Assembly (NCBI GenBank): GCA_016721625.1
Contig: JADKHR010000001.1
Coordinates: forward strand, 2,611,807 to 2,675,806
Direction of reading: 5' to 3'
Length of the DNA: 64,000 nt
Source: Elusimicrobiota bacterium
GTDB taxonomy: Bacteria > Elusimicrobiota > Elusimicrobia > FEN-1173
The position numbers were made by a program, and so were the translations under genes. Positions 26,909 to 64,000 of the stretch are shown piece by piece (the first letter of the stretch is position 1; each line of letters begins with the position of its first letter). The notes under the pieces are model-generated. The model searched no databases. It was not told where the DNA came from and saw only the letters and a list, made by a program, of their open reading frames with translations.

Positions 26909-28926
26909 GTGGACCGTTTCGAAATCGTTTCCAGTTTTAAACCCGCCGGGGACCAGCCCGACGCGATTCGCCAGCTGACCGAGGGCCTGAGGGCGGGCCT
27001 GCCGCACCAGGTCCTCCTGGGCGTCACGGGGAGCGGGAAGACCTTCACTGCGGCCAACGTCATCGCCCAGGTCAACCGCCCGACCCTGGTCATCTCTCCC
27101 AACAAAATATTGGCCGCCCAGCTCTACTCGGAGCTGAAGGCCTTCTTCCCCAAAAACGCCGTGGAATACTTCATCTCCTACTACGATTACTACCAGCCGG
27201 AGGCCTACGTCCCCTCGAGCGACACCTACATCGAGAAGGACTCGTCCATCAACGACGAGATCGACCGTTTGCGGTTAAAGGCCACCTCCTCGCTCCTCGA
27301 ACGGCGGGACGTGGTGGTGGTGGCCTCGGTGTCGTGCATCTACGGGTTGGGGAGCCCCCGCGAGTACAAAGAAATGTGCGTTTCCCTGGAGCGGGGCGCG
27401 CCCAAAAACCGGGAAGACCTCCTTCGCGAACTGGTCGACATCCAATACGAGAGGAACGAAATCTCATTCGTTCGGGGGAAATTTCGGGTCAAAGGCGACG
27501 TCGTCGATATTTTTCCCGCTTACCTTGAAACGGCTCTCCGGGTCGAACTGGACGGCGATCGGGTCTCCCGTTTGAGGGAGATCGATCCCCTCACGGGACG
27601 CACGATCCAGGAAAAGGACCGAACGTTCATTTACCCCGCCAAACATTTCGTGACGACGTCCGATATCATTGAACGCGCGCTCGGGGACATTCGAGCCGAA
27701 CTCGCCGAGCGTCTGGGGGTCCTCCGGGGCCAGAATAAATTGTTGGAAGCCCAACGCCTGGAACAGCGAACGCGTTTCGACATGGAAATGATGAAAGAGC
27801 TGGGGTTTTGCCACGGCATCGAAAACTATTCCCGCCATTTGTCCGGCCGCCCGGCGGGGGAACGCCCGGCTTGCCTCTTCGATTATTTCCCGAAAGATTT
27901 TTTGTTGGTCGTGGACGAATCCCACGTCACCGTGCCGCAGATCGGCGGGATGTTCGAGGGCGACCGTTCCCGGAAACAGACCTTGGCCGACTACGGGTTC
28001 CGTCTCCCCTCCGCGCTGGACAACCGGCCGCTGAAGTTTCCCGAGTTCGAGGCGCTGGTTCCCCAGGCGATTTATGTGTCCGCCACCCCGGCCCCTACGA
28101 GTTGGGCAAGACCGGGGGGGCGGTGGTGGAACAGGTGATTCGGCCCACGGGTCTGGTGGATCCCGAGGTGGTGCTCCGTCCTTCCCTGGGCCAGGTGGAG
28201 GACCTGGTGGCGCGGATCCAGGAGCGCGTGGGAAACCAAGAGCGGGCGTTAGTGACCACGCTCACCAAAAAAATGGCGGAGGACCTGGCGACGTATTTGG
28301 GCGGCCGGGGACTTCGGGTCCGTTACCTCCATTCAGACATCGAAACGCTTAAACGGGTGGAAATCTTAAAGGATCTGCGGAAGGGGACTTTTGATGTTCT
28401 CGTCGGGATCAACCTCTTACGGGAAGGTCTCGACCTCCCGGAGGTCTCGCTCGTGGCGGTTTTGGACGCCGACAAGGAGGGTTTCCTGCGTTCGGAGACG
28501 ACGCTCATTCAAGTCTGCGGCCGGGCGGCCCGGAACGTCCATGGCCAAGTGGTATTTTATGCCGACCGGGTGACGGGATCCATGCGCCGGGCCATGGACG
28601 AAATGGACCGCCGGCGAAAAAAGCAGGAGGAGTTCAATCGCCGCCACCATGTGACGCCTAAAACCATCCTCTCGGCCATACACGATCTGGAGGAATTCCA
28701 GCTGAAGGCCAAGGTCGAAGGGCTCCCTCTGCTCTTTCGCGAGGCCGGGGAGCGTTATTTGTCCGGGAAAGACCTGCCGGGCCTCGTCCGGAGTCTCGAA
28801 ACCCAAATGAAAGAAGCTGCCGACGCCTTGGATTTCGAACTGGCCGCTTTATTTCGGGACAAGCTCTTGGAAATCAAGGACATGCGTTCCGGAATTCAGA
28901 CCCCGGGGAAGAAAAAGAAAAGGTGA
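26909..28926 (+). CDS. uvrB: excinuclease ABC subunit B; reading frame interrupted near 28085-28100 (ccccggcccc run)
   Basis: ORF 26909..28138 carries the UvrB N-terminal half (GVTGSGKTF Walker A, DESH box) and ends …[16 protein letters not shown]…; the expected …[28 protein letters not shown]… and helicase C-terminal half plus UvrB/UvrC interaction tail continue in the frame of ORF 27808..28926. Confidence 0.8.
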
Positions 28927-39762: not shown

Positions 39763-41135
39763 ATGAACTACGACGCGATCGTCATCGGGGGGGGCATCAC
39801 GGGCGCCGGCGTTTTGCGGGACCTGGCGCTTCGCGGGGTCCGGTCCCTCCTGGTGGAAAAAGGCGAGTTCGGCCGGGCCACCACCGCCGCGTCCAGCCAC
39901 CTGATTCACGGGGGCCTCCGCTATCTCCTTTACGATCGTCTGACCACCCACGCCACGTGTTGGGATTCCGGCCACATCGTGCGCATGGCCCGCCCGCTCC
40001 TGACCCGGCTCCCGATCCTCTGGCCTGTCTACCGCGACCATCGGCGGGGCCTGGACACCGTGGAAACCCTGTTGGAATCCTACGACGGTTTTCAACCCAT
40101 GAAAGAGGGCCGGTCCCACCGGCGCCTCAGGGCGGAAGAAACCCTTCGGCTGGCGCCTGGATTAAAACGCGACGGATTGCGCGGGGGCCTGCTCTTCGAC
40201 GAATACTGGGTGGACGCGGTCCACCTGGTGGCGGCCAACATCGATTCGGCTGTTCGGGCGGGCGCGGAGGCCCGGACCGGGGTGGAGGTGATCGGGTTCG
40301 AACGGATGGGAAACTCCTCGGAGATTCGGGGGGTTCGCCTTCGCGGCGTGGACGGGAAAGAAGAAACTCTTTTGGCTCAAGTGGTGATCAATGCGGCGGG
40401 CCCCTGGGCGGACCGCGTCGCGGCCCTGGCGGGCGCGGAGGTTTCCCTCCGACTTCAGAAGGGCTCCCATTTGGTTTACCCTTCGAGCCCCTTGGGGGCC
40501 ATGCCGCTGAAAATGGGCTTTTGCTGGAGGCGGTGGATCGGGAGCGTTACGTGTTCATCCTTCCGGGGCAGGGAAAAACCTTGGTGGGCCCCACGGACCT
40601 GGCCGCCGCGGAGAGTCCGGACCATTTGACCGCCAGCGGGGAGGAAATCCAATACCTGATGGCCTCTTGCCGACGGTATTTTAAGGGGTTTCCGGAAAAC
40701 TTTACCGAAACGTCGGTGGGGGTCCGGCCCATCCTGGGGCAGAAAGGCCCTGAAAAACTTCTCTCCCGGGGTTTCCGGGTCATCGATCATGGGCGGGAGG
40801 GCGCCTCCCGTCTTGTCACCGTGGCGGGGGGGAAAATGTCAGACTTCCGTCTTATGGGGGAAGAGGCTGGGGACGCGGTTTCTCGATACCTTAAAACCGC
40901 AGGGCCTTGCTGGACCCGAACCCTGGCTCTGGACGGACAGAAAATCACGGACGCCACCGTCGGAGGGCCTCCTTCGACGCGGCTAAAAGAGTGGCTGGAT
41001 CTCCATCCTCGCTTGCGCGAGGCCCACGCCCTGGGGTGGTTGGGGGTGGCCTTTGCCCGGCACTTGGCACGGAAGGTTTTTGGCGGAAGTCGTCCGTCGA
41101 ACGTGGAAGACGTTTTGGTGCATTACGCGAAATAA
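39763..41135 (+). CDS. FAD-dependent glycerol-3-phosphate dehydrogenase (GlpA/GlpD family); reading frame interrupted near 40490-40510 (cccttggggg run)
   Basis: N-terminus MNYDAIVIGGGITGAGVLRDLALRG…SSHLIHGGLRYL (FAD dinucleotide fold) to …KGSHLVYP in ORF 39763..40629; conserved continuation …ENGLLLEAVDRERYVFILPGQGKTLVGPTD… and C-terminal domain in the frame of ORF 39957..41135. Confidence 0.7.
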
Positions 41136-52842: not shown

Positions 52843-53184
52843 TTATCCGATCGCCAGGCGGCCCGTTTCTCCCGTTCGAATCCGAATGACTTGGCCCAAA
52901 TCGAGAACAAAGATTTTCCCGTCGCCGACGTTCCCTGTTCGCCCGGCCGATTGAATGGCCTCCACCGTCGGCTGAACATATTCCTCGTTCACCGCGACTT
53001 CCACCTTCACTTTCTTAAGCAGGCTCCCGCCCTCTTTGTGGCTCCGGTAGACTTCCGAAATGCCTTTTTGACGGCCCCGACCCATGACGTTCGAGACAGT
53101 GACCAGGTGGATGGCCTTCTGTTCCAAGGCGTCCAGCACGTCGTCCAGCCGGTCCGGTTGAATGATGGCAACGATGTATTTCAT
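52843..53184 (-). CDS. glnK: nitrogen regulatory protein P-II (GlnB/GlnK family), paired with the upstream amt
   Basis: MKYIVAIIQPDRLDDVLDALEQ… with T-loop GRGRQKG…Y and C-terminal …GDGKIFVLDLGQVIRIRTGE; start codon at 53184 (listed ORF has a spurious N-terminal extension). Confidence 0.85.
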   Translation of the reverse strand: MKYIVAIIQPDRLDDVLDALEQKAIHLVTVSNVMGRGRQKGISEVYRSHKEGGSLLKKVKVEVAVNEEYVQPTVEAIQSAGRTGNVGDGKIFVLDLGQVIRIRTGETGRLAIG

Positions 53185-53206
53185 AGGGTTTTCTCCTGAA
53201 AAAAGA

Positions 53207-54532
53207 TTAGTCGATGATCGTGTAGGCCGCTTCGCGGTGTTGGGTGAGATCAAGGCCGATGCGTTCGTCCTGATCGGAAACCCGGAGCCCCACCAACACA
53301 TCCACCAGTTTAAGCAAGACGATGCTGAGAACGAAGGAGTAGATTCCCGTCACCAGTACCGCCTTGGTTTGGATCCAAACCAGCCCGGGGTTCCCGTGCA
53401 AAAGCCCATCGGCCCCCGCGGGATTGACGGTTTTCGTGGCCCAAATCCCCGTGGCGATGGCGCCCCAAATGCCGCCCACCCCGTGAACGCCGAAGGCGTC
53501 CAGGGAATCGTCATAACCCAATTTCACTTTCACGTACATCACGGAAACGAAACAAATGAGGGCGACTGTGATCCCGATGGCCATGGCCCCGAGCGGCGTG
53601 ACGTACCCCGCCGCCGGTGTGATGGCCACGAGCCCCGCCACGGCCCCCGTGATGGTGCCCAGCATGGTGGCGTGCCGGTTCACGAGGACATCCAACCCGG
53701 CCCACACAAGCCCGGCGGTGGCCGCCGCGATGTGGGTGGAGACGAAGGCCGTGGTGGCGAGACCCCCGGCGCCCAGGGCGCTCCCGCCGTTAAACCCAAA
53801 CCAACCGAACCACAACATCCCCGCGCCCAAGACCGCGAAGGGAAGGTTGTGGGGCGGAGACAGGCGGGTGGGGAACCCCCGCCGTTTCCCTAAAACCAGA
53901 GCCGCGGCCAGCGCCGCCACGCCGGCGTTGACGTGGACCACGGCGCCGCCCGCGAAATCCAGGGCCCCGGACAGTTTCAAAAACCCTCCCGTGCCCCACA
54001 CCCAATGGGCCACGGGGTCGTAGACGATGGTGCTCCAAAGAAGGGAAAAGAGAACGTAGGCGGAAAATTTCATCCGTTCGGCGAAGGCGCCCAAAATAAG
54101 GCCCGGCGTGATGATGGCGAACATGCATTGGTAGATCATGAAGGCCTGGTGCGGAATGGTGGGCGCGTAGTCGGTATTGGGCGTCAGTCCCACGCCGTTC
54201 AACCCGAGCCATTGAAGGTTTCCAACGAGGCCCCCAATGGTGGGCCCGAAAGAGAGGCTGTACCCCATCACCACCCATTGCACCGTGATCAGTCCCATGA
54301 CCGCGAAACACTGCATGAGAACGGACAACATGTTCTTTCGTCGCACAAGCCCGCCGTAAAAAAAGGCGAGGGCCGGCGTCATCATCAAAACCAACGCGGC
54401 GGACACCAGCACCCAGGCGGTATCTCCGGAACTCACGGCGGAAGGGGTGATCTCTCCCGCGGTTTCCGCCCATAGGGCGGGCGCCAGGAGCGAGGCAAAA
54501 ATACCAAGGACCAAATGTCGAATTCGTTTCAT
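53207..54532 (-). CDS. amt: ammonium transporter (Amt/MEP family) with signal peptide
   Basis: Start MKRIRHLVLGIFASLLAPALWA at 54532 preceded by AAGGAGG; Amt signatures (…MMTPALAFFYGGL…, twin-His region, …DFAGGAVVH…). Confidence 0.9.
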   Translation of the reverse strand: MKRIRHLVLGIFASLLAPALWAETAGEITPSAVSSGDTAWVLVSAALVLMMTPALAFFYGGLVRRKNMLSVLMQCFAVMGLITVQWVVMGYSLSFGPTIGGLVGNLQWLGLNGVGLTPNTDYAPTIPHQAFMIYQCMFAIITPGLILGAFAERMKFSAYVLFSLLWSTIVYDPVAHWVWGTGGFLKLSGALDFAGGAVVHVNAGVAALAAALVLGKRRGFPTRLSPPHNLPFAVLGAGMLWFGWFGFNGGSALGAGGLATTAFVSTHIAAATAGLVWAGLDVLVNRHATMLGTITGAVAGLVAITPAAGYVTPLGAMAIGITVALICFVSVMYVKVKLGYDDSLDAFGVHGVGGIWGAIATGIWATKTVNPAGADGLLHGNPGLVWIQTKAVLVTGIYSFVLSIVLLKLVDVLVGLRVSDQDERIGLDLTQHREAAYTIID

Positions 54533-54577
54533 GTCAGCAGTGACCTCCTTAAATGGTTCAGCGGGGGGCGGAATAAA

Positions 54578-54620
54578 AAACGCCTCGCGTCGCGGCAAGT
54601 GCCGCGCGGCGAGACGTCCA
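54578..54620 (-). promoter_or_regulatory. terminator-like hairpin plus U-tract in the amt leader, ~40 nt upstream of the start codon (putative attenuator)
   Basis: - strand RNA: CGCCGCGCGGCACUUGCCGCGACGCGAGGCG followed by UUUUUUAUU then the SD AAGGAGG. Confidence 0.4.
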
Positions 54621-54668
54621 TGTCTCCGACCCCGTCCGCTCTCAGGTCCCATTGGACCGGAACGTCGT

Positions 54669-54692
54669 TGTCTGAATCTGTCGGCACAGCGC
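54669..54692. promoter_or_regulatory. perfect 24-bp palindrome TGTCGGCACAGC-GCTGTGCCGACA immediately downstream of the amt -10 box (putative operator)
   Basis: read directly; core ACAGCGCTGT also present in the second amt leader (60849-60864). Confidence 0.4.
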
Positions 54693-54696
54693 TGTG

Positions 54697-54726
54697 CCGA
54701 CAAAGGATTCTACACTGCCCTGATGG
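54697..54726 (-). promoter_or_regulatory. sigma70-type promoter for amt-glnK (TTGACA-18 bp-TAGAAT on the - strand)
   Basis: reverse complement of tgtcaa (54721-54726) and attcta (54697-54702) with an 18-nt spacer. Confidence 0.5.
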
Positions 54727-56096: not shown

Positions 56097-57113
56097 TCAA
56101 TAGCTGAACTTGCCCAGCTCCACTTTCCCTCGGAAAACCCAATAGATGACGGCGGTGTAGGCCAGGACCATGGGCATGCCGAGGAACGCGATCAGGCGCA
56201 TGATCGCAAGGGTTTTTTCGGAGGAGGCGGCGTTGTAGATGGTGAGGTTGGCGGCGGGGTCGAGGCTGGAGACGGCCAGGTTGGGGTAAAGGGCCAGGCC
56301 GAAGAGGAAGACGAAAGCGGCAATGGACGCTCCGCTGGACAGAAACGCTTCAAAGGGCCTGCCGCGAAAAACAGCCCGGGGAATGTTGGCGACCGCCAAC
56401 ACGTTCAACACGACCACGGCCCACGCCCAAGGGTGGTGGGTGAAATTTTCCACGGCGCGGGGAACGGAAACCAGGGTGAAGATCGTCGTCAATAAATAGG
56501 TGATTAAAAACCAGCCGAACAGCCGCCAAATCCATCCCTGCAAACGCGCCTGGATCGGCCCCTCTGTTTTAAGGTAGAGATAAATGGCGCCGTGCATGGC
56601 CGCCGTGACGATGGCAAAAAGGCCGACCAGAACAGGATAGGGGGTCAGCAAGCCAAAAAATCCAATTCTCAGTTCTCCGTCCAACCCGATCGGAAGGCCG
56701 CGGAAACAGTTTCCCACGGCGGCGCCGAAAAGGAGGACCGCGGTGAGGCTTGATCCGAAAAAAGTCCAGTCCCAAAAAGATCGCCAGATTTTAGAGGGGC
56801 GCTTGCTCCGGAACTCCATGGACACCGCCCGGAGGATCAGGCAAAGGACCAACAGCATAAAGGCCGCGTAAAGGCCGGAAAACATCGTCGCGTAGGCCCG
56901 GGGAAAGGCCGCGAAAAGGGCGCCGCCGAACGTGACCAGCCAGACTTCATTGCCGTCCCAGAGGGGGCCGATGGAGTTCATGAAAATCCGACGTTCCTCA
57001 TCCGTCCGAGCCAGGGGATGCAGGATCCCCACGCCCAAATCGAACCCATCCAAAATCCCGTAACCCGCCATTAAAACGCCCAACAAGACAAACCAGAAAA
57101 TGTGTAAGTCCAT
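56097..57113 (-). CDS. cydB: cytochrome bd ubiquinol oxidase subunit II
   Basis: Start MDLHIFWFVLLGVLMAGYGILDGFDLGVG (cydB signature) at 57113; 8-9 TM helices; the listed ORF carries a short spurious N-terminal extension. Confidence 0.9.
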   Translation of the reverse strand: MDLHIFWFVLLGVLMAGYGILDGFDLGVGILHPLARTDEERRIFMNSIGPLWDGNEVWLVTFGGALFAAFPRAYATMFSGLYAAFMLLVLCLILRAVSMEFRSKRPSKIWRSFWDWTFFGSSLTAVLLFGAAVGNCFRGLPIGLDGELRIGFFGLLTPYPVLVGLFAIVTAAMHGAIYLYLKTEGPIQARLQGWIWRLFGWFLITYLLTTIFTLVSVPRAVENFTHHPWAWAVVVLNVLAVANIPRAVFRGRPFEAFLSSGASIAAFVFLFGLALYPNLAVSSLDPAANLTIYNAASSEKTLAIMRLIAFLGMPMVLAYTAVIYWVFRGKVELGKFSY

Positions 57114-57169
57114 TGCGCCTCCAAAAAAAGTGGAATTTAACAGGGTGTCGTTGCTAAGACCTCCCCCAG

Positions 57170-57318
57170 CCCCCTCCTTGCGAAGGAGGGGGAACACGGC
57201 TCCTCCATAAATGGGATTTCCCTTCCCAGGGAAGGCCCGTCGTCCGGATCCTCATGATCCGGGTTGCAAAAAGACCCACGCGGGCTTGTCTTTTTTTCCC
57301 CTCCTTCCCAAGGAGGGG
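57170..57318. repeat. cluster of GC-rich hairpins in the cydA-cydB spacer including two REP-like palindromes CCCCCTCCTT-GCG-AAGGAGGGGG and CCCCTCCTT-CCC-AAGGAGGGG
   Basis: 57170-57192 (10-bp stem), 57221-57235 (CCTTCC-cag-GGAAGG), 57244-57262 (CCGGATC-ctcat-GATCCGG), 57298-57318 (9-bp stem); all read directly. Confidence 0.5.
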
Positions 57319-57413
57319 ATTAAGGGGAGGTTAAAGCTTTGATGCCGGTTCAAAACCTCCGTGTCCAGCCCAAGCGGATGGGGGAAAGGGACTTCCCCGG
57401 CCGAGGGTGTTTC

Positions 57414-58826
57414 TTACTCTTTTCCTTCCGTCAGAGATCCCCCGGCTTTTAGATCTCCCACGGTTTGAATGAACCCGTGGGAGGGATCCCCTGGGGCCAG
57501 GAAGGACATTTCCTCGGGGCCTTGTTTGATCTTGTGGTCGATCACGGAAACCCAAACGGCAAAAAGAAGGGCGTAGATTACGCCGAACATCAGGATGGAA
57601 CCCAGCACTTGGTTCGCCCGCACCACGGGGGAAAGGGCTTCGGAGGTGCGAAGCAAGCCATAGACGATCCACGGTTGGCGTCCCACTTCGGCGGCCACCC
57701 ATCCCAATTGGTTGGCGGCCACGGGAGCGAGAACGGCGAAAACGAACGTCCACAAAAGGCCCCGCTGTTCAAACAGTCGGCCGCGGGCTCTCAGCCAGGC
57801 GGCCAGGCCCGTCAGTCCCATCATGAAAAATCCGAGGCCGACCATCACGTGGTAGGAATGAAAAGAAACCGCCACGGGCGGCCGGTCTTCTTTGGGGAAC
57901 TTGTCCAAGCCGGTCACCGGTTTTTTGAAATCGCCATACACCATGAAACTCAGGAGGCCCGGGACGGCGATGCCTTTGGTGGTTTCTGTTTTCGCGTCGG
58001 GATGGCCCACGACGTAGAGAGGGGTTCCTCCCTCGCCCGTTTTGAAATGGCCCTCAAAGGCCGCCAGCTTGGCCGGCTGGTGTTCCGCCACCACGCGGGC
58101 CTGGTGGTGGCCGGAAAGAAGTTGGCCCCAACTGGAGAGCGTGGCAAGGAGGAGCGCCACCGAAAACGCTTTCTTAGAGATGTCCAGGTGGCGGCCTTTC
58201 AGGATGTAATAGGCCGTGACGCTCATCACGAAAAAGCCTCCCATCGAGAAGGCGCCCAGCCAGACGTGGACCAGCCGGTCCATACTCGAGGGGTTAAACA
58301 CCACGGCCCAAAAATCGGTTATCTCCGCCCGGGCGGCCAGTCCCTCTCCAACGATGTGGAACCCCGCGGGAGTCTGTTGCCAACTGTTGGCGACGGTGAT
58401 CCAAACCGAGGAGAAGATCGATCCCAGAAACACCATCACGGTCGAAAAGAAGTGCATGCGGGGGGAAACTTTGTCCCAACCGAACACCAAGACCGCCAAA
58501 AACCCCGACTCCAAGAAAAAGGCAAAAATCCCTTCCGCCGCCAGGGCCGACCCAAAAACGTCTCCCACGAAACGGGAGTAGTTGGCCCAGTTCGTCCCGA
58601 ACTGGAATTCCATGACGATCCCCGTGGCGACGCCCACGGCGAAGTTGACGGCAAAAATCCGCGTCCAGAACTTGGCCATGGATTCATACTGGGGGTCTTT
58701 CGTTTTTAAATACATGCCTTCCATGAAAACCATCAGCGCTCCCAGGCCGATGGCGAGCGGGGGAAACAGGTAATGAAACATGATGGTCAGCGCGAATTGA
58801 AGACGGGAGAGGAAAAGAACGTCCAT
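57414..58826 (-). CDS. cydA: cytochrome bd ubiquinol oxidase subunit I (short Q-loop type)
   Basis: [29 protein letters not shown]… matches the CydA N-terminus; GWMQNP-like WQQTP quinol-binding region; start at 58826 (earlier in-frame ATGs 58835/58862 less likely). Confidence 0.9.
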
Positions 58827-58898
58827 GGGACACATTGTGAAATAAGAAAGGGCGGGGGTCAAGGACCCCCGCCCTTTCTGGTGAAGCGTTGGGAACGG

Positions 58899-59240
58899 CT
58901 AGCCGATGGCGGCTTTGCCCTTTTCTCCGGTGCGGATACGGACGACTTCTTCGAGAGGGACCACGAAGATTTTTCCGTCGCCGATGTTCCCGGAACGCGC
59001 GGCCTTGGTGATGGCCGCGATGCAGGGTTCGACATACTCGTCGTTCACGGCGATATCGAAGCGGACCTTTTTCAGGAGGTTAACCTCATACTTCGCGCCG
59101 CGGTAGCTTTCCGTGTAGCCCTTCTGCCGGCCGGAGCCGAGAACGTTGGACACCGTCATGAGGTGAATTTGGGCGTCGTCCAGGGCTTTTTTAACTTCCG
59201 CCACTTTGTGCGGTTGAACCATGGCAATAATAAGTTTCAT
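58899..59240 (-). CDS. glnK: nitrogen regulatory protein P-II (GlnK-type), second copy
   Basis: [56 protein letters not shown]…[27 protein letters not shown]. Confidence 0.85.
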
Positions 59241-59246
59241 GGATGA

Positions 59247-60800
59247 TTACCTCCCGGACCCGGCCAATTTAGGCTCGGGTTTTGAATCACCGCTGTCGCC
59301 GGCGGGGGCCAGACCGTATTCCGTCATGTAGATTTGGAATCCAGCGTAGGCTTCCATTCCGTGTTCGCCGATGTCAAGGCCGCGGATTTCTTCTTCGCGG
59401 CTCACCCGGAGACCCATCATGGCTTTCACGACCAACCAGAAGATGACCGAGAGCACGAGCGTGAACAGGATCGTGGTCACGGACCCCAATAGCTGAACTC
59501 CCAGGAGCTTGAATCCGCCTCCGTAGAAGAGCCCGTTTCCGGTGCCGACGCCGGTGATTTTGTCGACGGCGAAGAGACCCACGGCGAGGGTGCCCCAGAT
59601 GCCGTTGGTCAAGTGCACGGCCAAGGCGCCCACGGGGTCATCCACCTTGATTTTGTCGTAGAACAATACGGCAAAGACCACGAGGATTCCGCCGATGCCG
59701 CCGATGATAATAGAGGCGGGCAGAGTCACATAGGCGCAAGGGGCGGTGATGGCCACCAATCCGGCCAAACAGCCGTTGATGGTCATGCCCAGGTCGGGTT
59801 TCCCTAAAACCATCCACGCTGTGATCGTCGCGGTCAAAAGGCCCGCGGCGGCGGCCAGGTTGGTGGTGTTCAGGATGTGGCTGATGGCGCCGGCATCGGC
59901 GGCCATGGTGGACCCGGGGTTAAACCCGAACCAGCCGAGCCAGAGGATCAAACACCCTAGGGTCGCGGAGGTCAAGTTGTGACCCGGGATGGCGTTGGGG
60001 GTTCCGTCGGGACGGAACTTCCCAATGCGGGGGCCCAGGATCAAAATCCCGGCCAAGCCCGCGACGCCGCCCACGGTATGAACCGCGGTGGACCCGGCAA
60101 AGTCCCAGAAGCCTTTCTGGGCCAACCATCCGCCGCCCCATATCCAGTGGCCGGTAATCGGGTAGGCGATGCCCACCAGGAGGGCGCTGAAGACGATGAA
60201 GCTCACGTATTTGATCCGTTCCGCGACGCAACCGGAGACGATGGTGGCCGCCGTGCCCGCGAAAACCAATTGGAAGAAGAATTTCGCGGAGAGGGGAACG
60301 CCCGTCCAGTTGATGGCGTTATAGACGCCGGAATAGGCCGACCCCGTGGCGGGACTGTTGTCCGCCCCGGAGATCATGAAGAGGCCTTTCAACCCCATGA
60401 ACCCGTTGCCGTCGCCGAACATGACGCCCCAGCCTAAGACGTAAAAGGCCAGGGAACTCACGGCGAAGACGATGAAGTTTTTGGAGAGGATGTTGACGGC
60501 GTTTTTCGCGCGGCACATGCCCGATTCCACCAGGGCGAACCCGGCGTTCATCCAGAACACCAGGAAGGCCGTGACGAGAACCCAGATGGTGTCGGCGACG
60601 ACTTTCCGATCGGTGAGGCCCTGCTCAATGGCGGCCAAACGCGATTCCAGGGCCGGGGCCTGATCGGCCACCGCCACCGTTCCAGCGGGAGCGGGGGTGG
60701 GTTCCTCCGCTCGGAGGGCGACCGGCAAGAGACCGGCGCCCCAGGTCAAAAGCGCGAAGAGTCCACCGCGCCAAAGACAACGTTTTGTTTTTGACAGCAT
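59247..60800 (-). CDS. amt: ammonium transporter (Amt family) with long signal-peptide-containing N-terminal extension, second copy
   Basis: Start [24 protein letters not shown] at 60800 preceded by GGAGGAACTT; Amt motifs (…[13 protein letters not shown]…, DFAGSTAVH…); upstream part of listed ORF lacks RBS support. Confidence 0.85.
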
Positions 60801-60810
60801 AAGTTCCTCC

Positions 60811-60836
60811 ATTTTATTTAAGCGCCCGAGGGCGCT
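60811..60836 (-). promoter_or_regulatory. hairpin GCGCCC-TC-GGGCGC followed by U-rich tract immediately upstream of the amt SD (attenuator-like)
   Basis: - strand RNA: GCGCCCUCGGGCGCUUAAAUAAAAUGGAGGAACUUAUG. Confidence 0.35.
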
Positions 60837-60848
60837 GTTGATTTTTTG

Positions 60849-60864
60849 GAGACAGCGCTGTCTC
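60849..60864. promoter_or_regulatory. palindrome GAGACAGC-GCTGTCTC in the second amt leader sharing the ACAGCGCTGT core with 54669-54692
   Basis: read directly. Confidence 0.35.
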
Positions 60865-60935
60865 GTGAAAACCGGCACAAAAAAAAAGCCCTTTCCGAAA
60901 CAGCGGAAAGGACAGTCTTTGTCCAGACGATGCAT

Positions 60936-60953
60936 CAACACACCCGTGTGTTG
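60936..60953. promoter_or_regulatory. perfect palindrome CAACACAC-CC-GTGTGTTG overlapping the predicted transcription start of the second amt (putative operator)
   Basis: read directly; lies 10-30 nt downstream of the -10 box. Confidence 0.35.
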
Positions 60954-60962
60954 TATGGGCAG

Positions 60963-60990
60963 ATTTTAGCAAATTCTACCCGATTGTCAA
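60963..60990 (-). promoter_or_regulatory. sigma70-type promoter for the second amt-glnK (TTGACA-16 bp-TAAAAT on the - strand)
   Basis: reverse complement of tgtcaa 60985-60990 and atttta 60963-60968. Confidence 0.45.
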
Positions 60991-61083: not shown

Positions 61084-63192
61084 TCAGGCGGGGCGGAGAA
61101 AGGTATTCAGCGGTCGTCGAAAGGTGCCTTCCGGCACAGGGGCGGCGTAGCCTAAACGGAAAAGCATGATCAGCCCATTTCGATCGAAGTCCACCTGGGG
61201 AAACCAAGGTCGAGCCAGTTCCATGGCCCGATGCAGATGCCGGCTCGAGTGCGGGGGGAAAGGAGCGTCTCCTTCGGAGCGCCAAACGGTCCAAAAGAAC
61301 ACGAGGCTGGCGTTGGGTTGTAGCGCCAGCCCGTGGGCCGTGGCGGTCAACCAGACCCGTTCCCAGGCTCTTCCCCCGTGAAAGAAATCGAGCAGGTCAT
61401 CTCCCTTCATGGTCAGAAGGCCCACGGCGGAGGAGGACAAAATGGAGTCCCTTCCGATCTTGGCGACCAAGTTCCCGATCCCGCAACGGTTGGCCAGGTC
61501 CATGACGGGCCAAGGACGCGTCAGCGTCAGGAAAATTCGCCCGTCGATCCCGGCCATGAGATTGTTGTAGGAAAAACCGTCGCCGCGGGAGCGGGCCTCC
61601 GCGGCGTTTTTCCGAATGGACTGGTACAAGGGTTTATGGCACGGGCGTAGGGTGACCCGGGCCCGGTCGGCCCAGTAAACGGCTTCGGCCATGGACTCGA
61701 TTCCCGGGCGGTCCGTCACCAGGTGCAACGCCGCCCCTCGCTCCGCGGCGGAGGAGACCAGGGCGCGCTGGGTTTCGAGGGGGATGGGCCGTTTGTCAAA
61801 AAGGCGCCGGTTGGTGTCCCGTTCCCAGACCATATCGGCCAAGGGGTCCCGGGCTTTTTCCGCCGGGACGAACCGGATGGACGCCACCCGCTCGTCCTGT
61901 TGCCCCACCGGTTCGGCCTCCACCACCGTTTCAAGGCCGAAGGCCGACGCGGCCACCGTCATGTTTTCCAAAATGGCTCCGTTGGAAATCAGCGTGGCTC
62001 TCTGCTGGAAGTTGAAAAACGAGGGATCCGCCTCCGCGTTCAAAAGAATATCGACGCGGTCTCCTTTCTGCCGGAACGCCCAGGGCTGAATGTTGTCGCC
62101 CGAGGGGGCCTGCAGTCCGGCGTGGAGGAGGAATTCCATCACGTTCGGCGGAATCGGGCCCCGTCGATCCCATTCCGCCTTGGGCGCGGCGGACCGAAAG
62201 GCATTGGTTTGTCTCGCGATGGCCCGACGCCCCAGCCAAATTTTAAGTCGTTGGAGCGGGCCTCGGTTCCCCCACCGTAGCCGCCCCTGGCGGAACAAAT
62301 GGAGATAGGCGTCGAATTGAAAATGCCACGGAGCCGGTTTGAGGCCCGGACGCCCCAGGATCAAACGGAGGACTTCCGTCGCGGCCAATCCCGAGGCCAG
62401 TTGACAGGCCAATCCCAGGGAAGGCCCGCTTTTTTCGGCCAAGCGAATACGCCCCGGGATCATGTATTTCGTGTGGAGGAGGGTTGGGGTGATTCCCAGA
62501 TAAAAACGGAGATATCCCTCCAGAAGGGGCGTCTGGTCGTTGAGGTCAAAGTAGTTGTCAAAACTCATGCTGTCCGGAGTGAAGACGATGAAGGGGGACC
62601 CGAACCCGATGGGGCCCGCCGTGACGACGGGAATCCTTCTTTCTCGGGCGCGTCGAAAGAAGAGGCGCCTGGCCGGAAGAGCGAAAAAATCGAGGCCGTC
62701 CAGGGCCACGTCGACCCCGTCCAAAAAGGCGTCCACGTTGGCCGGGGTCACCCCTTCCGGAAAAAGGCGAACGTCGGCGAAGGGGTTGATGGCGAGGATG
62801 TCTTCTCTCAACACTTCGGCTTTGGGGCGGCCGAAGGTGGCCACGCGGGCGCCCTGTTGGCGGTTGATGTTCACCGGGTCAAAACGGTCAAAATCGGCCA
62901 GGTGAAACCGGCCCACCCCGGAACGCGCCAGGGTGGTCGCGTGGGATCCGCCCACCCCCCCTCCCCCGGCGATGGCCACCCGCGAGCGGGCGAGTTTTTG
63001 CATGTCCGCCCGGGTCAAGATCCCGACGTTCCTTGAAAAAGCCGAGGCCCAATAAGCTTCAGCGTTTCCGAGGTCCCAGGTTTTTAGTTGGGCGACGAGG
63101 TCTTCCGGATTGAACAAAGTCATGGAGATAACCGCTCCTCTTCTTGTGAAGGATTTCAACCAAAACATAGCCCCAAACACCCTTATTGTCAA
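61084..63192 (-). CDS. ThiF/MoeB (E1-like) nucleotide-binding domain fused to a nitroreductase-like (SagB-type) domain; MoeY/Rv1355c-like architecture, function unknown
   Basis: 702-aa ORF; N-terminal Rossmann motif VAIAGGGGVGGSHATTLARSGVGRFHLADFDRFDPVNINRQ (ThiF family), C-terminal half with nitroreductase signature …LQAPSGDNIQPWAF…; own promoter-like TTGACA-17-TATGTT upstream on the - strand. Confidence 0.75.
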   Translation of the reverse strand: MTIRVFGAMFWLKSFTRRGAVISMTLFNPEDLVAQLKTWDLGNAEAYWASAFSRNVGILTRADMQKLARSRVAIAGGGGVGGSHATTLARSGVGRFHLADFDRFDPVNINRQQGARVATFGRPKAEVLREDILAINPFADVRLFPEGVTPANVDAFLDGVDVALDGLDFFALPARRLFFRRARERRIPVVTAGPIGFGSPFIVFTPDSMSFDNYFDLNDQTPLLEGYLRFYLGITPTLLHTKYMIPGRIRLAEKSGPSLGLACQLASGLAATEVLRLILGRPGLKPAPWHFQFDAYLHLFRQGRLRWGNRGPLQRLKIWLGRRAIARQTNAFRSAAPKAEWDRRGPIPPNVMEFLLHAGLQAPSGDNIQPWAFRQKGDRVDILLNAEADPSFFNFQQRATLISNGAILENMTVAASAFGLETVVEAEPVGQQDERVASIRFVPAEKARDPLADMVWERDTNRRLFDKRPIPLETQRALVSSAAERGAALHLVTDRPGIESMAEAVYWADRARVTLRPCHKPLYQSIRKNAAEARSRGDGFSYNNLMAGIDGRIFLTLTRPWPVMDLANRCGIGNLVAKIGRDSILSSSAVGLLTMKGDDLLDFFHGGRAWERVWLTATAHGLALQPNASLVFFWTVWRSEGDAPFPPHSSRHLHRAMELARPWFPQVDFDRNGLIMLFRLGYAAPVPEGTFRRPLNTFLRPA

Positions 63193-63333: not shown

Positions 63334-64000
63334 ATGAACTTTCACGGCCATACGATCGTTCTCTGTAACGGGGCGAGAACCCCCTTCGGCGCCCTGGGAA
63401 AACTGTTGGCGGACGTGTCCCCCGAAGAACTCATGGGGACGGTGTTCGCGGAGGTGATGAAACGGGCCCGCCTGCGTCCGGCCCAGGTGGACGGGGTGAT
63501 GGTGGGCTGGGTCGGGGAGGATTCCCATGCCTTGAATATCGCCCGGGTCGCGGCCCTGCAGTTGGGCTTGCCGGTCAGCACCCCGGCGCTCACTCTCCAA
63601 GCCAATTGCGTGGCCGGGCTCGAAGCTGTCTGCGCGGCCGTGGGGCGCATCTTGGCGGGAGATGGGGAACTTTTCCTTGTGGGAGGGACCGAAAGCATGT
63701 CCCGCGTCCCCTTCGCCATTCGCGGAACGCGGTCCAGCGCCCTCCTGCGTTCCTTGGAAACGGTGAAAGCCCATTGGGCCGAACTCCTTCAATCCGCGGA
63801 CGTTTCTCTGGTGGACATGTTGGAGGAAGGGCTCACCGACCCCGTCGCTCACATCAACATGGGGGCGACGGCGGAAGTGCTGGCTCAGATTTTTCGCATT
63901 GACCGGGCCGCCCAGGACCGCTATGCCATGGAAAGCGTGCGCCGGGCGGTGGCCGCCACCCGGGAGGGGTTTCATTCCTCCCATATGGTTTCGGTGATGC
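63334..64000 (+). CDS. thiolase-family acyltransferase (acetyl-CoA acetyltransferase-like), 5' part only; runs off the window end
   Basis: ATG 63334 (not in the ORF table because no stop is reached): MNFHGHTIVLCNGARTPFGALGKLLADVSPEELMGTVFAEV…TPALTLQANCVAGLEAV (thiolase active-site Cys region); TTGAAA-17-TAGGAT promoter-like element at ~63240-63270. Confidence 0.7.
   Translation, partial: MNFHGHTIVLCNGARTPFGALGKLLADVSPEELMGTVFAEVMKRARLRPAQVDGVMVGWVGEDSHALNIARVAALQLGLPVSTPALTLQANCVAGLEAVCAAVGRILAGDGELFLVGGTESMSRVPFAIRGTRSSALLRSLETVKAHWAELLQSADVSLVDMLEEGLTDPVAHINMGATAEVLAQIFRIDRAAQDRYAMESVRRAVAATREGFHSSHMVSVM

Follow-up and report, generated by a model that had tools for sequence, protein, structure and literature searches.

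The closest described systems to the gene analysed here are oxazolone synthetases, in which a ThiF-like cyclase works together with a flavin-dependent oxidase (FDO). OxzB, from Pseudoalteromonas rubra and further Proteobacteria, was described in 2020/21 as an oxazolone synthetase (de Rond, Asay & Moore, bioRxiv 10.1101/2020.06.11.147165). The mycobacterial protein Rv1355c, formerly called MoeY, was recognised in 2025 as the N-acyl-tryptazolone synthetase TrzS, acting with TrzA (Rv1356c) (PMC12856293). A pathway in which the ThiF protein and the FDO are split, comprising TyzB and TyzC (Rv2338c/Rv2337c) together with TyzA, was reported in 2023 for the tyrazolones of M. tuberculosis (PMC10404671). 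Fusion to ThiF characterises the FDO-A group, whose members make oxazolones, and not FDO-B (PMC10404671). A related ring closure is carried out by TcdA, which dehydrates an N-carbamoyl amino acid in an ATP-dependent manner and so makes an oxazolone ring (PMC12596934). An adjacent acyltransferase is described in the oxazolone papers as typical, not universal. The products of the family are small-molecule lipids and not RiPPs: N-acyl amino acids are converted into oxazolone lipids.

The gene studied here lies near one end of a 64,000-nucleotide stretch of DNA (the window) and is an intact Elusimicrobia member of this characterised ThiF–flavin-oxidase family, represented by OxzB and TrzS. The earlier note, made from the letters of the window, had reported a ThiF–nitroreductase protein of 702 aa at positions 61084-63192. 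This open reading frame exists on the reverse strand, and it contains the motifs GGGGVGG, D..NRQ and APSGDNIQPWAF, none of which varies among 38 family members. The length of 702 aa, however, has to be revised: translation almost certainly begins at the ATG at 63123, which is preceded by GAGGAG and gives 679 aa, in agreement with homolog lengths and with GenBank protein MBL0059743.1 of the same genome. The TTG at 63192, from which the longer frame starts, opens a promoter-like TTGACA-N17-TATGTT, located 5' of the ATG. The gene had also been credited with its own promoter, a claim that holds at the level of consensus matching only (10/12), in a region where the consensus scan returned 5 sites against 1.2 expected. 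Comparison of this promoter region with the thiolase–MMPL intergenic promoter of the relatives gave a weak local alignment only (score 36). When 58-64 kb was searched against Rfam at E ≤ 1, only three sub-threshold chance matches came up, none of them in the flanks of the ThiF-FDO gene. The placement of the gene upstream of amt(2) was correct. Because amt has its own strong promoter-like site (11/12) and a structured leader, which is conserved in three relatives (L004, L001 and L005), it appears to form a separate transcription unit, whose site bounds the ThiF-FDO unit on the 3' side.

Table 1. Features of the ThiF–flavin-oxidase locus in window coordinates.
Feature	Position	Strand	Basis
ThiF–flavin-oxidase CDS, including stop codon	61084..63123	-	679 aa; open reading frame, ATG/RBS and GenBank call
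ThiF/E1-like adenylation (cyclase) domain	62200..63051	-	residues ~25-308 of 679; Pfam, NCBIfam and fold matches
Flavin-dependent oxidase (FDO) domain	61096..62187	-	residues ~313-676; single-chain pseudo-dimeric Acg-type nitroreductase fold
Shine-Dalgarno-like GAGGAG	63135..63140	-	11 nt before ATG; read from sequence
Promoter-like TTGACA-N17-TATGTT, upstream of CDS	63164..63192	-	10/12 consensus matches; consensus match only
Promoter-like site of amt(2)-glnK unit	60963..60990	-	11/12 matches; scan
Thiolase, 5' part, divergent, leaving the window edge	63334..64000	+	Pfam Thiolase_N, E 1e-41

Both halves of the protein were assigned by profile searches and by fold. Pfam ThiF matched with an E-value of 2e-42, and Pfam Nitroreductase matched the C-terminal half weakly but above its gathering score. 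Among the NCBIfam models, PRK08223 scored 364 bits on the ThiF half, over its cutoff of 266, and the Acg-family FMN oxidoreductase model scored 169.5 bits on the FDO half (E 1e-49; cutoff 199). The AlphaFold model of the 679-aa protein has a mean pLDDT of 92 and a pTM of 0.86, with a pLDDT of ~82-84 in the inter-domain linker. Its top Foldseek match was 2YMV, the structure of Acg (E 6e-14, TM 0.79), which was also the sole nitroreductase-fold sequence match in the PDB. The ThiF half matched 1ZUD/1ZFN at TM 0.85, with PaaA and MccB also among its fold matches, and its best PDB sequence match was TcdA (CsdL; E 9e-16). On the NCBIfam Acg family and the top fold match 2YMV, the C-terminal half is a monomeric flavin-dependent oxidase of the Acg type. 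The same structures, 2YMV and 1ZUD/1ZFN, were reported as reference structures for TrzS (PMC12856293).

The residues expected at the ATP site are intact. The glycine-rich loop G53-G59, D77/D79, N85-x-N87-R88-Q89, K101 and D142/D145 are invariant in 38 homologs, and the window protein keeps all family-invariant residues. D145 aligns with D127 of E. coli ThiF and, judged from the alignment, is equivalent to the class of residue mutated as D217A in TrzS. The FDO domain holds the motif APSGDNxQPW (339-348) as well as R435/R439, all in invariant columns, and the invariant R435, R439, R504 and Q602 are candidates only for FMN-site equivalents of TrzS R540/Q651.

How close, then, is the window protein to the characterised enzymes? 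Full-length homology is suggested by proxies only: the Rv1355c-family NCBIfam model matches both halves (E 5e-82), and an OxzB-like protein of P. ardens, encoded directly downstream of an oxzA-like gene, can be aligned with residues 4-676 (33% identity) and gives the same ordered set of NCBIfam matches. The architecture that the earlier note had seen in Rv1355c is indeed shared. The Rv1355c-family score, at 276 bits, lies below the cutoff of 476, and the window protein is therefore not a TrzS equivalog. The best match, PRK14851, a model of an uncharacterised ThiF-FDO subfamily, also covers the full length (positions 5-673 of 679) at 729 bits, below its cutoff of 1170, under which the partnered relatives L001 and L002 fall likewise. 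Every full-length NCBIfam model scores the window protein under its curated cutoff, and by these profiles the protein belongs to a divergent clade and is not an equivalog of any tested enzyme.

With OxzB the window protein has in common a ThiF domain followed by a nitroreductase-fold FDO, in ~670-680 aa, but the two come from different phyla with only ~33% identity (measured on the P. ardens OxzB-like protein), and the oxzA partner is not adjacent in the window. The order is oxzA then oxzB in the OxzB system, whereas the close relatives of the window gene have MMPL, oxzB and then oxzA, and their partner acyltransferases are 409-517 aa long with a second Acetyltransf_5 region, compared with 284 aa in Pseudoalteromonas. 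TrzS shares the fused arrangement of ThiF-like cyclase and FDO, 1ZFN and 2YMV as closest solved structures, and the conserved ATP-site Asp; it differs in having trzA adjacent, which the window gene does not. The TyzB/TyzC pair belongs to the same chemistry class, but it is split where the window protein is fused, and TyzA is of a different acyltransferase family (PMC10404671). Split forms also occur among the relatives of the window protein, namely FDO-only proteins (P0078, P0109) and ThiF-only proteins (PRK08223). Acg/Rv3131/MsAcg (FDO-B, PDB 2YMV) have the same single-chain pseudo-dimeric fold as the FDO half; in the window protein, however, this half is fused to ThiF and scores under the Acg model cutoff. 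TcdA, a tRNA t6A dehydratase, acts on tRNA and has no FDO, and its model scores 64 bits on the window protein against a cutoff of 304.

The relatives' loci provided the functional context. We found more than 100 full-length ThiF-FDO fusions, which, together with the GenBank call of 679 aa, confirmed a genuine ThiF–nitroreductase-fold fusion and ruled out a frameshift or fusion artefact. In 60 relatives' loci the flanks measured 3 kb or more on both sides. An acyltransferase of the FeeM/OxzA type was fused to the gene or lay no more than 500 bp away in 43 of these loci, and 50 had one within 10 kb; the remaining 10 had none nearby. Triple FeeM-ThiF-FDO fusions also occur. The search of genome contigs for relatives gave best identities of 45-53% among the matches listed. 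Many of the ThiF-FDO relatives come from anaerobes (Desulfobacterota), whereas the oxidase step that has been studied needs O2.

The closest partnered relatives (L001 and L005-L007, 73-74% identity) carry a thiolase next to the gene order MMPL, ThiF-FDO, FeeM, and share with the window a syntenic block of thiolase, amt, P-II and AAA_14. Between the ThiF-FDO stop and the amt promoter-like site, these relatives have the acyltransferase and, in L001, also an M28 peptidase. Both the MMPL and the FeeM partner are gone from the window locus and from that of an 87%-identical strain (L004); relative to L001/L005, M28 is gone as well. The thiolase is a conserved neighbour of the ThiF-FDO cluster (L001, L005, L006, L008), and that of the window is 72% identical to the L001 thiolase. 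Beyond the window edge, as seen in L008, the thiolase is followed by an O-methyltransferase (OMT) and a class-I methyltransferase, the OMT being 45-55% identical to those adjoining ThiF-FDO genes in L091/L092/L075. Tblastn and iterated HMM searches detected no acyltransferase in the 64-kb window, and none was seen in the part of L008 that extends past the window edge. On one side of the gene, 61 kb are free of acyltransferase, exporter or other biosynthetic genes; on the other, where ~3 kb are known, there is nothing biosynthetic beyond the thiolase and methyltransferases. By Pfam, the other open reading frames of the window are housekeeping genes only, and the earlier statement that no YcaO, precursor or transporter lies nearby holds for the window at the level of this annotation.

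The description of the gene as an orphan is accordingly right for the locus but not for the genome, since two OxzA/FeeM-type (TIGR03694) acyltransferases are encoded elsewhere. The source is an Elusimicrobia MAG with a 2,758,065-bp contig carrying the window genes and both acyltransferases; MBL0059683.1 lies ~60 genes and MBL0059231.1 ~510 genes away, as estimated from GenBank accession order and from Logan contigs of the same sample (L089 and L090, which do not overlap the window). Identical contigs occur in source samples of the SRR149324xx/SRR149325xx series. One acyltransferase (P0246) is 63-68% identical to those adjoining ThiF-FDO genes in other Elusimicrobia, and another (P0250) is 51-52% identical to the L001/L005 acyltransferases. 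The cognate L001-type acyltransferase was not found in the genome as far as the search reached, and none of the 20 inspected clusters (90%) contained a hidden second ThiF-FDO or cognate acyltransferase. The two remaining acyltransferases are paralogous types, and they may be linked to the ThiF-FDO enzyme.

We consider it probable that the gene encodes an OxzB/TrzS-type oxazolone synthetase which has lost its partners from the locus and receives its substrate in trans. What the sequences show in its support is the homology to the family, the fold combining ThiF with an Acg-type FDO, the invariant motifs, the acyltransferase association in relatives and the purifying selection. By analogy with the studied enzymes we infer the chemistry in the host organism; which acyltransferase serves in trans, which amino acids and acyl chains are used and what accepts the electrons are likewise inferred. 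The N-terminal ThiF-like domain would bind ATP-Mg and adenylate the alpha-carboxylate of an N-acyl-L-amino acid; the amide oxygen would then attack the acyl-adenylate, and AMP would leave to give a saturated 5(4H)-oxazolone ring. The FMN-dependent C-terminal oxidase would desaturate the C-alpha–C-beta bond, yielding a conjugated 4-ylidene-oxazolone lipid, and the reduced flavin would be reoxidised, as it is by O2 in the studied enzymes. The ancestral operon presumably encoded an MMPL exporter, the ThiF-FDO and an N-acyl amino acid synthase of the FeeM/OxzA type in this order, of which the exporter and the cognate acyltransferase would have been lost from the locus in the window lineage, leaving the gene with its own promoter-like site. 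MBL0059683.1 and/or MBL0059231.1 may supply the N-acyl amino acid in trans, and the conserved O-methyltransferase beyond the thiolase may act on the product as a tailoring enzyme.

Two other readings of the protein fared poorly. The earlier note had pointed to RiPP maturation machinery; in such a reading the E1-like half would be a YcaO partner and the other half an azoline dehydrogenase of the SagB type, with a ribosomal peptide as substrate. RiPP pathways do contain members of both superfamilies (PMC12596934), and PaaA and MccB are among the structures resembling the ThiF half. However, of the profile searches that had been proposed, those with ThiF and nitroreductase models succeeded and those with SagB-type dehydrogenase did not: the 24 NCBIfam matches at E ≤ 0.1 include neither a SagB nor an ocin-ThiF-like model, and McbC/SagB-type structures are absent from the top 50 fold matches, in which Acg 2YMV comes nearest to the FDO half. 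YcaO is missing from the Pfam-annotated open reading frames of the window and from ~15 annotated relatives' neighbourhoods; the dominant conserved neighbour is instead an N-acyl amino acid synthase. We rejected the RiPP/TOMM role as very improbable on account of the missing SagB/ocin-ThiF profile matches, the absence of YcaO and the Acg-like fold. Hardly credible is also a sulfur-carrier-protein adenylyltransferase of the MoeB/ThiF type, as implied by the old molybdopterin label MoeY. Such a role would explain the weak MoeB/ThiF model matches (E 1e-14 to 1e-25) and JGI names such as "molybdopterin/thiamine biosynthesis adenylyltransferase", but the MoeB/ThiF/MoeZ models score far under their cutoffs (88 vs 159; 74 vs 449), a MoaD/ThiS-like neighbour was not found, and alignment and direct reading revealed no cysteine, and hence no counterpart of the CxxC zinc site, at the stretch where ThiF has one. 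Moreover, Rv1355c itself is now TrzS (PMC12856293), so that the description of MoeY as a protein of unknown function is outdated. What remains of the earlier proposal of an undescribed small-molecule or peptide-modifying enzyme is the small-molecule part; the kind of enzyme is already known from OxzB and TrzS.

The loss of the partner genes raises the questions of whether the gene still functions and, if so, on what. A non-functional relic of a deleted biosynthetic operon would fit the fact that, compared with L001/L005, MMPL, FeeM and M28 are missing, and also the divergence of the gene between the window and L004, at 87% identity next to an amt that is 98.7% identical. Yet both strains keep the frame of 679 codons intact, the invariant catalytic residues are all present, and the gene has a promoter-like site and an RBS of its own. 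Between these two partner-less strains dN/dS is 0.17, equal in both domains, at a dS of 0.42; because of this value, the gene is under purifying selection, and a pseudogene is disfavoured and improbable. Retention of the same fold for another substrate, such as exogenous N-acyl amino acids of neighbouring microbes, N-acetyl or N-formyl amino acids or a peptide C-terminus, is unlikely as well. It would account for a gene kept under selection in two diverged strains that lack OxzA and MMPL, and for the 10 relatives' loci without a nearby acyltransferase. The higher dN/dS of the partner-less pair (0.17, against 0.09 in a partnered pair) is compatible with shifted constraint, although the difference is small and confounded by dS saturation. 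The two partner-type acyltransferases in the genome, the complete set of family-invariant residues and the retained OMT neighbour all speak against a change of substrate. We also see some chance, if a rather small one, that the stand-alone ThiF-FDO is kept for a job other than canonical clustered oxazolone biosynthesis. It might, for instance, form (O-methylated) oxazolones from the products of an unlinked "exosortase-associated" acyltransferase or from N-acyl amino acids of the community, as a dispersed or scavenging pathway in a microaerotolerant Elusimicrobium. The electron acceptor might also be something other than O2, as would be needed by the numerous relatives from anaerobic Desulfobacterota.

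Taken as an oxazolone synthetase, the window gene does not overturn current knowledge and is of modest interest only: it is a known kind of enzyme in a dispersed gene arrangement, whose only unusual feature is the absence of the partner genes from the locus. It does correct an annotation trap, in which labels such as "ThiF family adenylyltransferase", MoeY and molybdopterin, as well as the RiPP reading, hide a characterised lipid-making enzyme. The oxazolone synthetase family is extended to Elusimicrobia, Desulfobacterota and Planctomycetota, where the MMPL exporter, the O-methyltransferases and other methyltransferases, and the two-region acyltransferases are new as recurrent neighbours and point to oxazolone lipids that are tailored and exported. 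With the clade so abundant in anaerobes, one may ask how the flavin is reoxidised without O2, and the partner-less but selectively kept copy provides a natural test of a synthetase with unlinked acyltransferases.

The gene under study, ThiF-FDO, which encodes a ThiF domain together with an FDO (flavin-dependent oxidase) domain, is most likely an oxazolone synthetase, with the genes of its pathway scattered over the genome. The open reading frame exists where the earlier note had placed it, but its 5' end needs to be trimmed by 69 nt. The TTG listed as the start coincides with the first base of a promoter-like site. An ATG lies 23 codons 3' of it, at 63123 and behind a GAGGAG; translation from there gives 679 rather than 702 aa, which equals GenBank MBL0059743.1 from the same genome and is typical of homologs. 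Pfam matched ThiF (E 2e-42) and, weakly but above the gathering score, Nitroreductase, and the uncharacterised NCBIfam model PRK14851 matched the full length with 729 bits; the two-domain description in the earlier note was thus right, as were the motifs it quoted and the likeness it saw to Rv1355c ('Rv1355c family', E 5e-82). Further NCBIfam matches were 'Acg family FMN-binding oxidoreductase' (E 1e-49) and the ThiF-only PRK08223, whose cutoff was exceeded. No full-length model scored ThiF-FDO as high as its curated cutoff, which makes the protein a divergent clade member rather than the equivalog of an enzyme that has been tested. The fusion is genuine: more than 100 full-length proteins of 665-705 aa from Elusimicrobia, Desulfobacterota and other groups carry both domains, ruling out the artefact that the note had considered. 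Proteobacteria and Planctomycetota also carry the family among the matches listed in a scan of species-representative genomes, and some variants carry a methyltransferase domain or, N-terminally, a FeeM (N-acyl amino acid synthase) domain; a few are split.

Coordinates and accessions of the features discussed (window positions unless a relative's locus is named)
Feature	Coordinates	Strand	Remarks
ThiF-FDO ORF	61084..63192	-	702 aa as listed, TTG start; MBL0059743
Promoter-like site TTGACA-N17-TATGTT	63192..63164	-	consensus match
Thiolase	63334 ->	+	divergent neighbour of ThiF-FDO
amt(2) 5' leader	60800..60990	-	L004:1815-2025; L001:14210-14440; L005:11330-11560
Terminator-like hairpin and U9 run in leader	60913..60888
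amt–P-II pair	58899..60941	-	
cydAB and AAA_14/DUF4143 ATPase	56097..58862	-	between the amt–P-II pairs
amt–P-II pair	52843..54703	-
ThiF-FDO/amt region compared with L004	59862..62819
uvrB, two ORFs	26909..28138; 27808..28926	+	overlapping, different frames
DAO-family FAD oxidoreductase ORF and overlapping ORF	39763..41135	+	288 aa and 392 aa
GlyQ			MBL0059695
P-II			MBL0059741
TopA			MBL0059702
Acyltransferase P0250			455 aa; 51% identity to L001's partner acyltransferase; MBL0059683
Acyltransferase P0246			517 aa; 33% identity to L001's partner acyltransferase; MBL0059231
Loci with MMPL transporter 5' of ThiF-FDO	L003:7699-14136; L001:7701-10004; L005:5612-7915		also in L018
Partner acyltransferases	L001:12034-13311; L002:12040-13284; L091:5747-7225

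The function of this MoeY architecture, described in the earlier note as unknown, had already been solved in the literature. In Pseudoalteromonas rubra, the oxazolone synthetase OxzB unites a ThiF and a nitroreductase domain and acts on N-acyl-Tyr/Phe, the products of the adjacent acyltransferase OxzA (bioRxiv 10.1101/2020.06.11.147165), and the same chemistry is split over two proteins, TyzB and TyzC, in M. tuberculosis (PMC10404671). Rv1355c ('MoeY') itself is TrzS, which together with TrzA (Rv1356c) forms N-acyl-tryptazolones by ATP-dependent cyclisation and subsequent O2-dependent desaturation (PMC12856293). An OxzB-like protein of Pseudoalteromonas ardens, with an oxzA-like gene immediately upstream, shares 33% identity with ThiF-FDO over residues 4-676 and matches the same NCBIfam models in the same order. 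In an alignment of 38 homologs, the ATP site (G53-G59, D77/D79, N85/N87/R88/Q89, K101, D142/D145) and the flavin-domain motifs (A339-W348, R435/R439) are invariant. D145 aligns with D127 of E. coli ThiF, the residue class of TrzS D217, whose replacement by alanine abolished cyclase activity (PMC12856293). The AlphaFold model built from the alignment was confident (pLDDT 92, pTM 0.86); its N-terminal half best matched ThiF (1ZUD/1ZFN, TM 0.85) and its C-terminal half MsAcg (2YMV, TM 0.79), the pair of references that had been reported for TrzS (PMC12856293).

Among relatives on long contigs, the closest are L001 (74% identity) and L005-L007 (73%); they have in common with the window a synteny block of thiolase, amt, P-II and AAA_14 genes. 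At the place of the window's solitary gene they have the order MMPL, ThiF-FDO, FeeM/Acetyltransf_5 acyltransferase, with ORFs that overlap or stand close, and L001 adds an M28 peptidase. Neither tblastn nor iterated HMM searches found homologs of MMPL, acyltransferase or M28 in the 64-kb window. The arrangement is also reduced in L004, a strain with an 87%-identical ThiF-FDO, where amt lies directly 3'. Of the 60 loci from relatives that had no less than 3 kb of flanking sequence on each side, 43 had an acyltransferase of the OxzA/FeeM type fused to ThiF-FDO or at most 500 bp away, 50 had one within 10 kb, and 10 had none; ThiF-FDO also precedes the acyltransferase in other Elusimicrobia clades (L002, L091/L092). 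In several lineages an MMPL-family transporter gene lies immediately 5' of ThiF-FDO and overlaps it, and in L003 TP_0789-like (LolA-like) and DUF1302 outer-membrane genes take the place of the acyltransferase; these recurring genes hint at a dedicated export route for a lipid product. Gene context therefore links the family firmly with the synthesis of N-acyl amino acids and, probably, with lipid export. The window's arrangement is derived, through loss, and belongs to a minority (about 17%).

On the 3' side of ThiF-FDO, in the same orientation, come amt-glnK, which has a promoter-like site of its own, then cydAB and an AAA_14/DUF4143 gene. The amt-glnK adjacency is lineage-specific synteny with separate promoters and not evidence for a nitrogen-related role. 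Among the relatives compared, cydAB adjoins the locus only in the window's genome; this lineage seems to have gained it by insertion, since the syntenic L001 lacks it between P-II and AAA_14, and a link between its O2 scavenging and an O2-dependent oxidase is speculation. The two amt–P-II pairs lie about 5 kb apart, their amt proteins being about 35% and their P-II proteins about 55% identical. Conservation of the amt(2) leader far exceeds that of the intergenic DNA around it. The leader comprises a promoter-like TTGACA-N16-TAAAAT, three hairpins, one of them terminator-like, and a possible SD-sequestering pairing, with compensatory AU↔GC changes between lineages in two hairpin pairs. Rfam gave no match at E <= 1, and the four sequences, from about two independent lineages, weakly suggest that an ammonium transporter of Elusimicrobia could here have an attenuator or riboswitch-like leader not described before. 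Elsewhere in the window, uvrB appears split into one ORF with the N-terminal helicase/UvrB_inter and another with Helicase_C/UvrB/UVR, either by a frameshift (assembly error) or as a pseudogene. The DAO-family ORF, covering only profile positions 1-236 of 353 and overlapped in another frame by a 392-aa ORF without Pfam match, may likewise be frameshifted.

A search with a profile built from the relatives' acyltransferases found two matches, P0250 and P0246, on the 2,758,065-bp contig carrying the window's genes, whose TopA is 100% identical to a protein of an NCBI Elusimicrobia MAG. By GenBank accession order, P0250 therefore lies about 60 genes from ThiF-FDO, just beyond the window's left edge, and P0246 at a distance of about 510 genes. 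The curated TIGR03694 model accepts both, along with the Pseudoalteromonas oxzA-like protein, and P0246 is 63-68% identical to acyltransferases directly 3' of ThiF-FDO in other Elusimicrobia. The Elusimicrobia partners are longer (409-517 aa versus 284 aa for the oxzA-like protein), with a second, C-terminal Acetyltransf_5-like region besides the FeeM/Acetyltransf_5 region; TIGR03694 matches P0246 in two stretches. On contigs of the same sample, a hexapeptide transferase adjoins each of the two and a GMC oxidoreductase adjoins P0246, but ThiF-FDO was found beside neither. The clusters inspected contained neither an L001-type cognate acyltransferase nor a second ThiF-FDO of this genome. L008, which runs past the window's right edge, has an O-methyltransferase (OMT) and a methyltransferase just beyond the thiolase. 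This OMT is 45-55% identical to those adjoining ThiF-FDO in L091/L092 and L075 (a Planctomycetales MAG); many family members have a methyltransferase nearby, and in P0057 it is fused.

By analogy with the characterised homologs, a TIGR03694-type acyltransferase would supply an N-acyl amino acid, which the ThiF domain would adenylate and cyclise and the FDO domain desaturate, and the OMT may tailor the product. We infer the oxazolone chemistry from the homologs, and the acyltransferase presumably acts in trans; the substrate and electron acceptor are likewise putative. A RiPP/TOMM enzyme, the link drawn in the earlier note from azoline dehydrogenases, is very improbable: the flavin domain falls into the Acg-like FDO subgroup within the nitroreductase superfamily and not among the azoline dehydrogenases (PMC10404671), and the NCBIfam matches included no SagB-type or ocin-ThiF-like model. 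Hardly any weight falls on a MoeB/ThiF role with a sulfur carrier; the zinc CxxC region of ThiF has no counterpart. The loss of the partner genes leaves two further explanations. That ThiF-FDO is a relic seems quite improbable, as the frame is intact and every invariant residue is retained. Between the two partner-less strains (window and L004) dN/dS is 0.17, equal in both domains, at a dS of 0.42, as compared with 0.09 between two partnered relatives; the gene is under purifying selection, perhaps slightly relaxed. A substrate shifted after partner loss is unlikely, if less so. Separately, the synonymous divergence from L004 is only 0.13 in the adjacent amt (98.7% protein identity), a pattern that suggests either a boundary of recombination or constraints that differ greatly between the neighbours.

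The probable oxazolone synthetase is a divergent member of a known enzyme family in an unusual, dispersed genomic arrangement. The main value of the finding lies in correcting the annotation and in pointing to unexplored oxazolone lipids, possibly exported and methylated, in Elusimicrobia and anaerobic Desulfobacterota.
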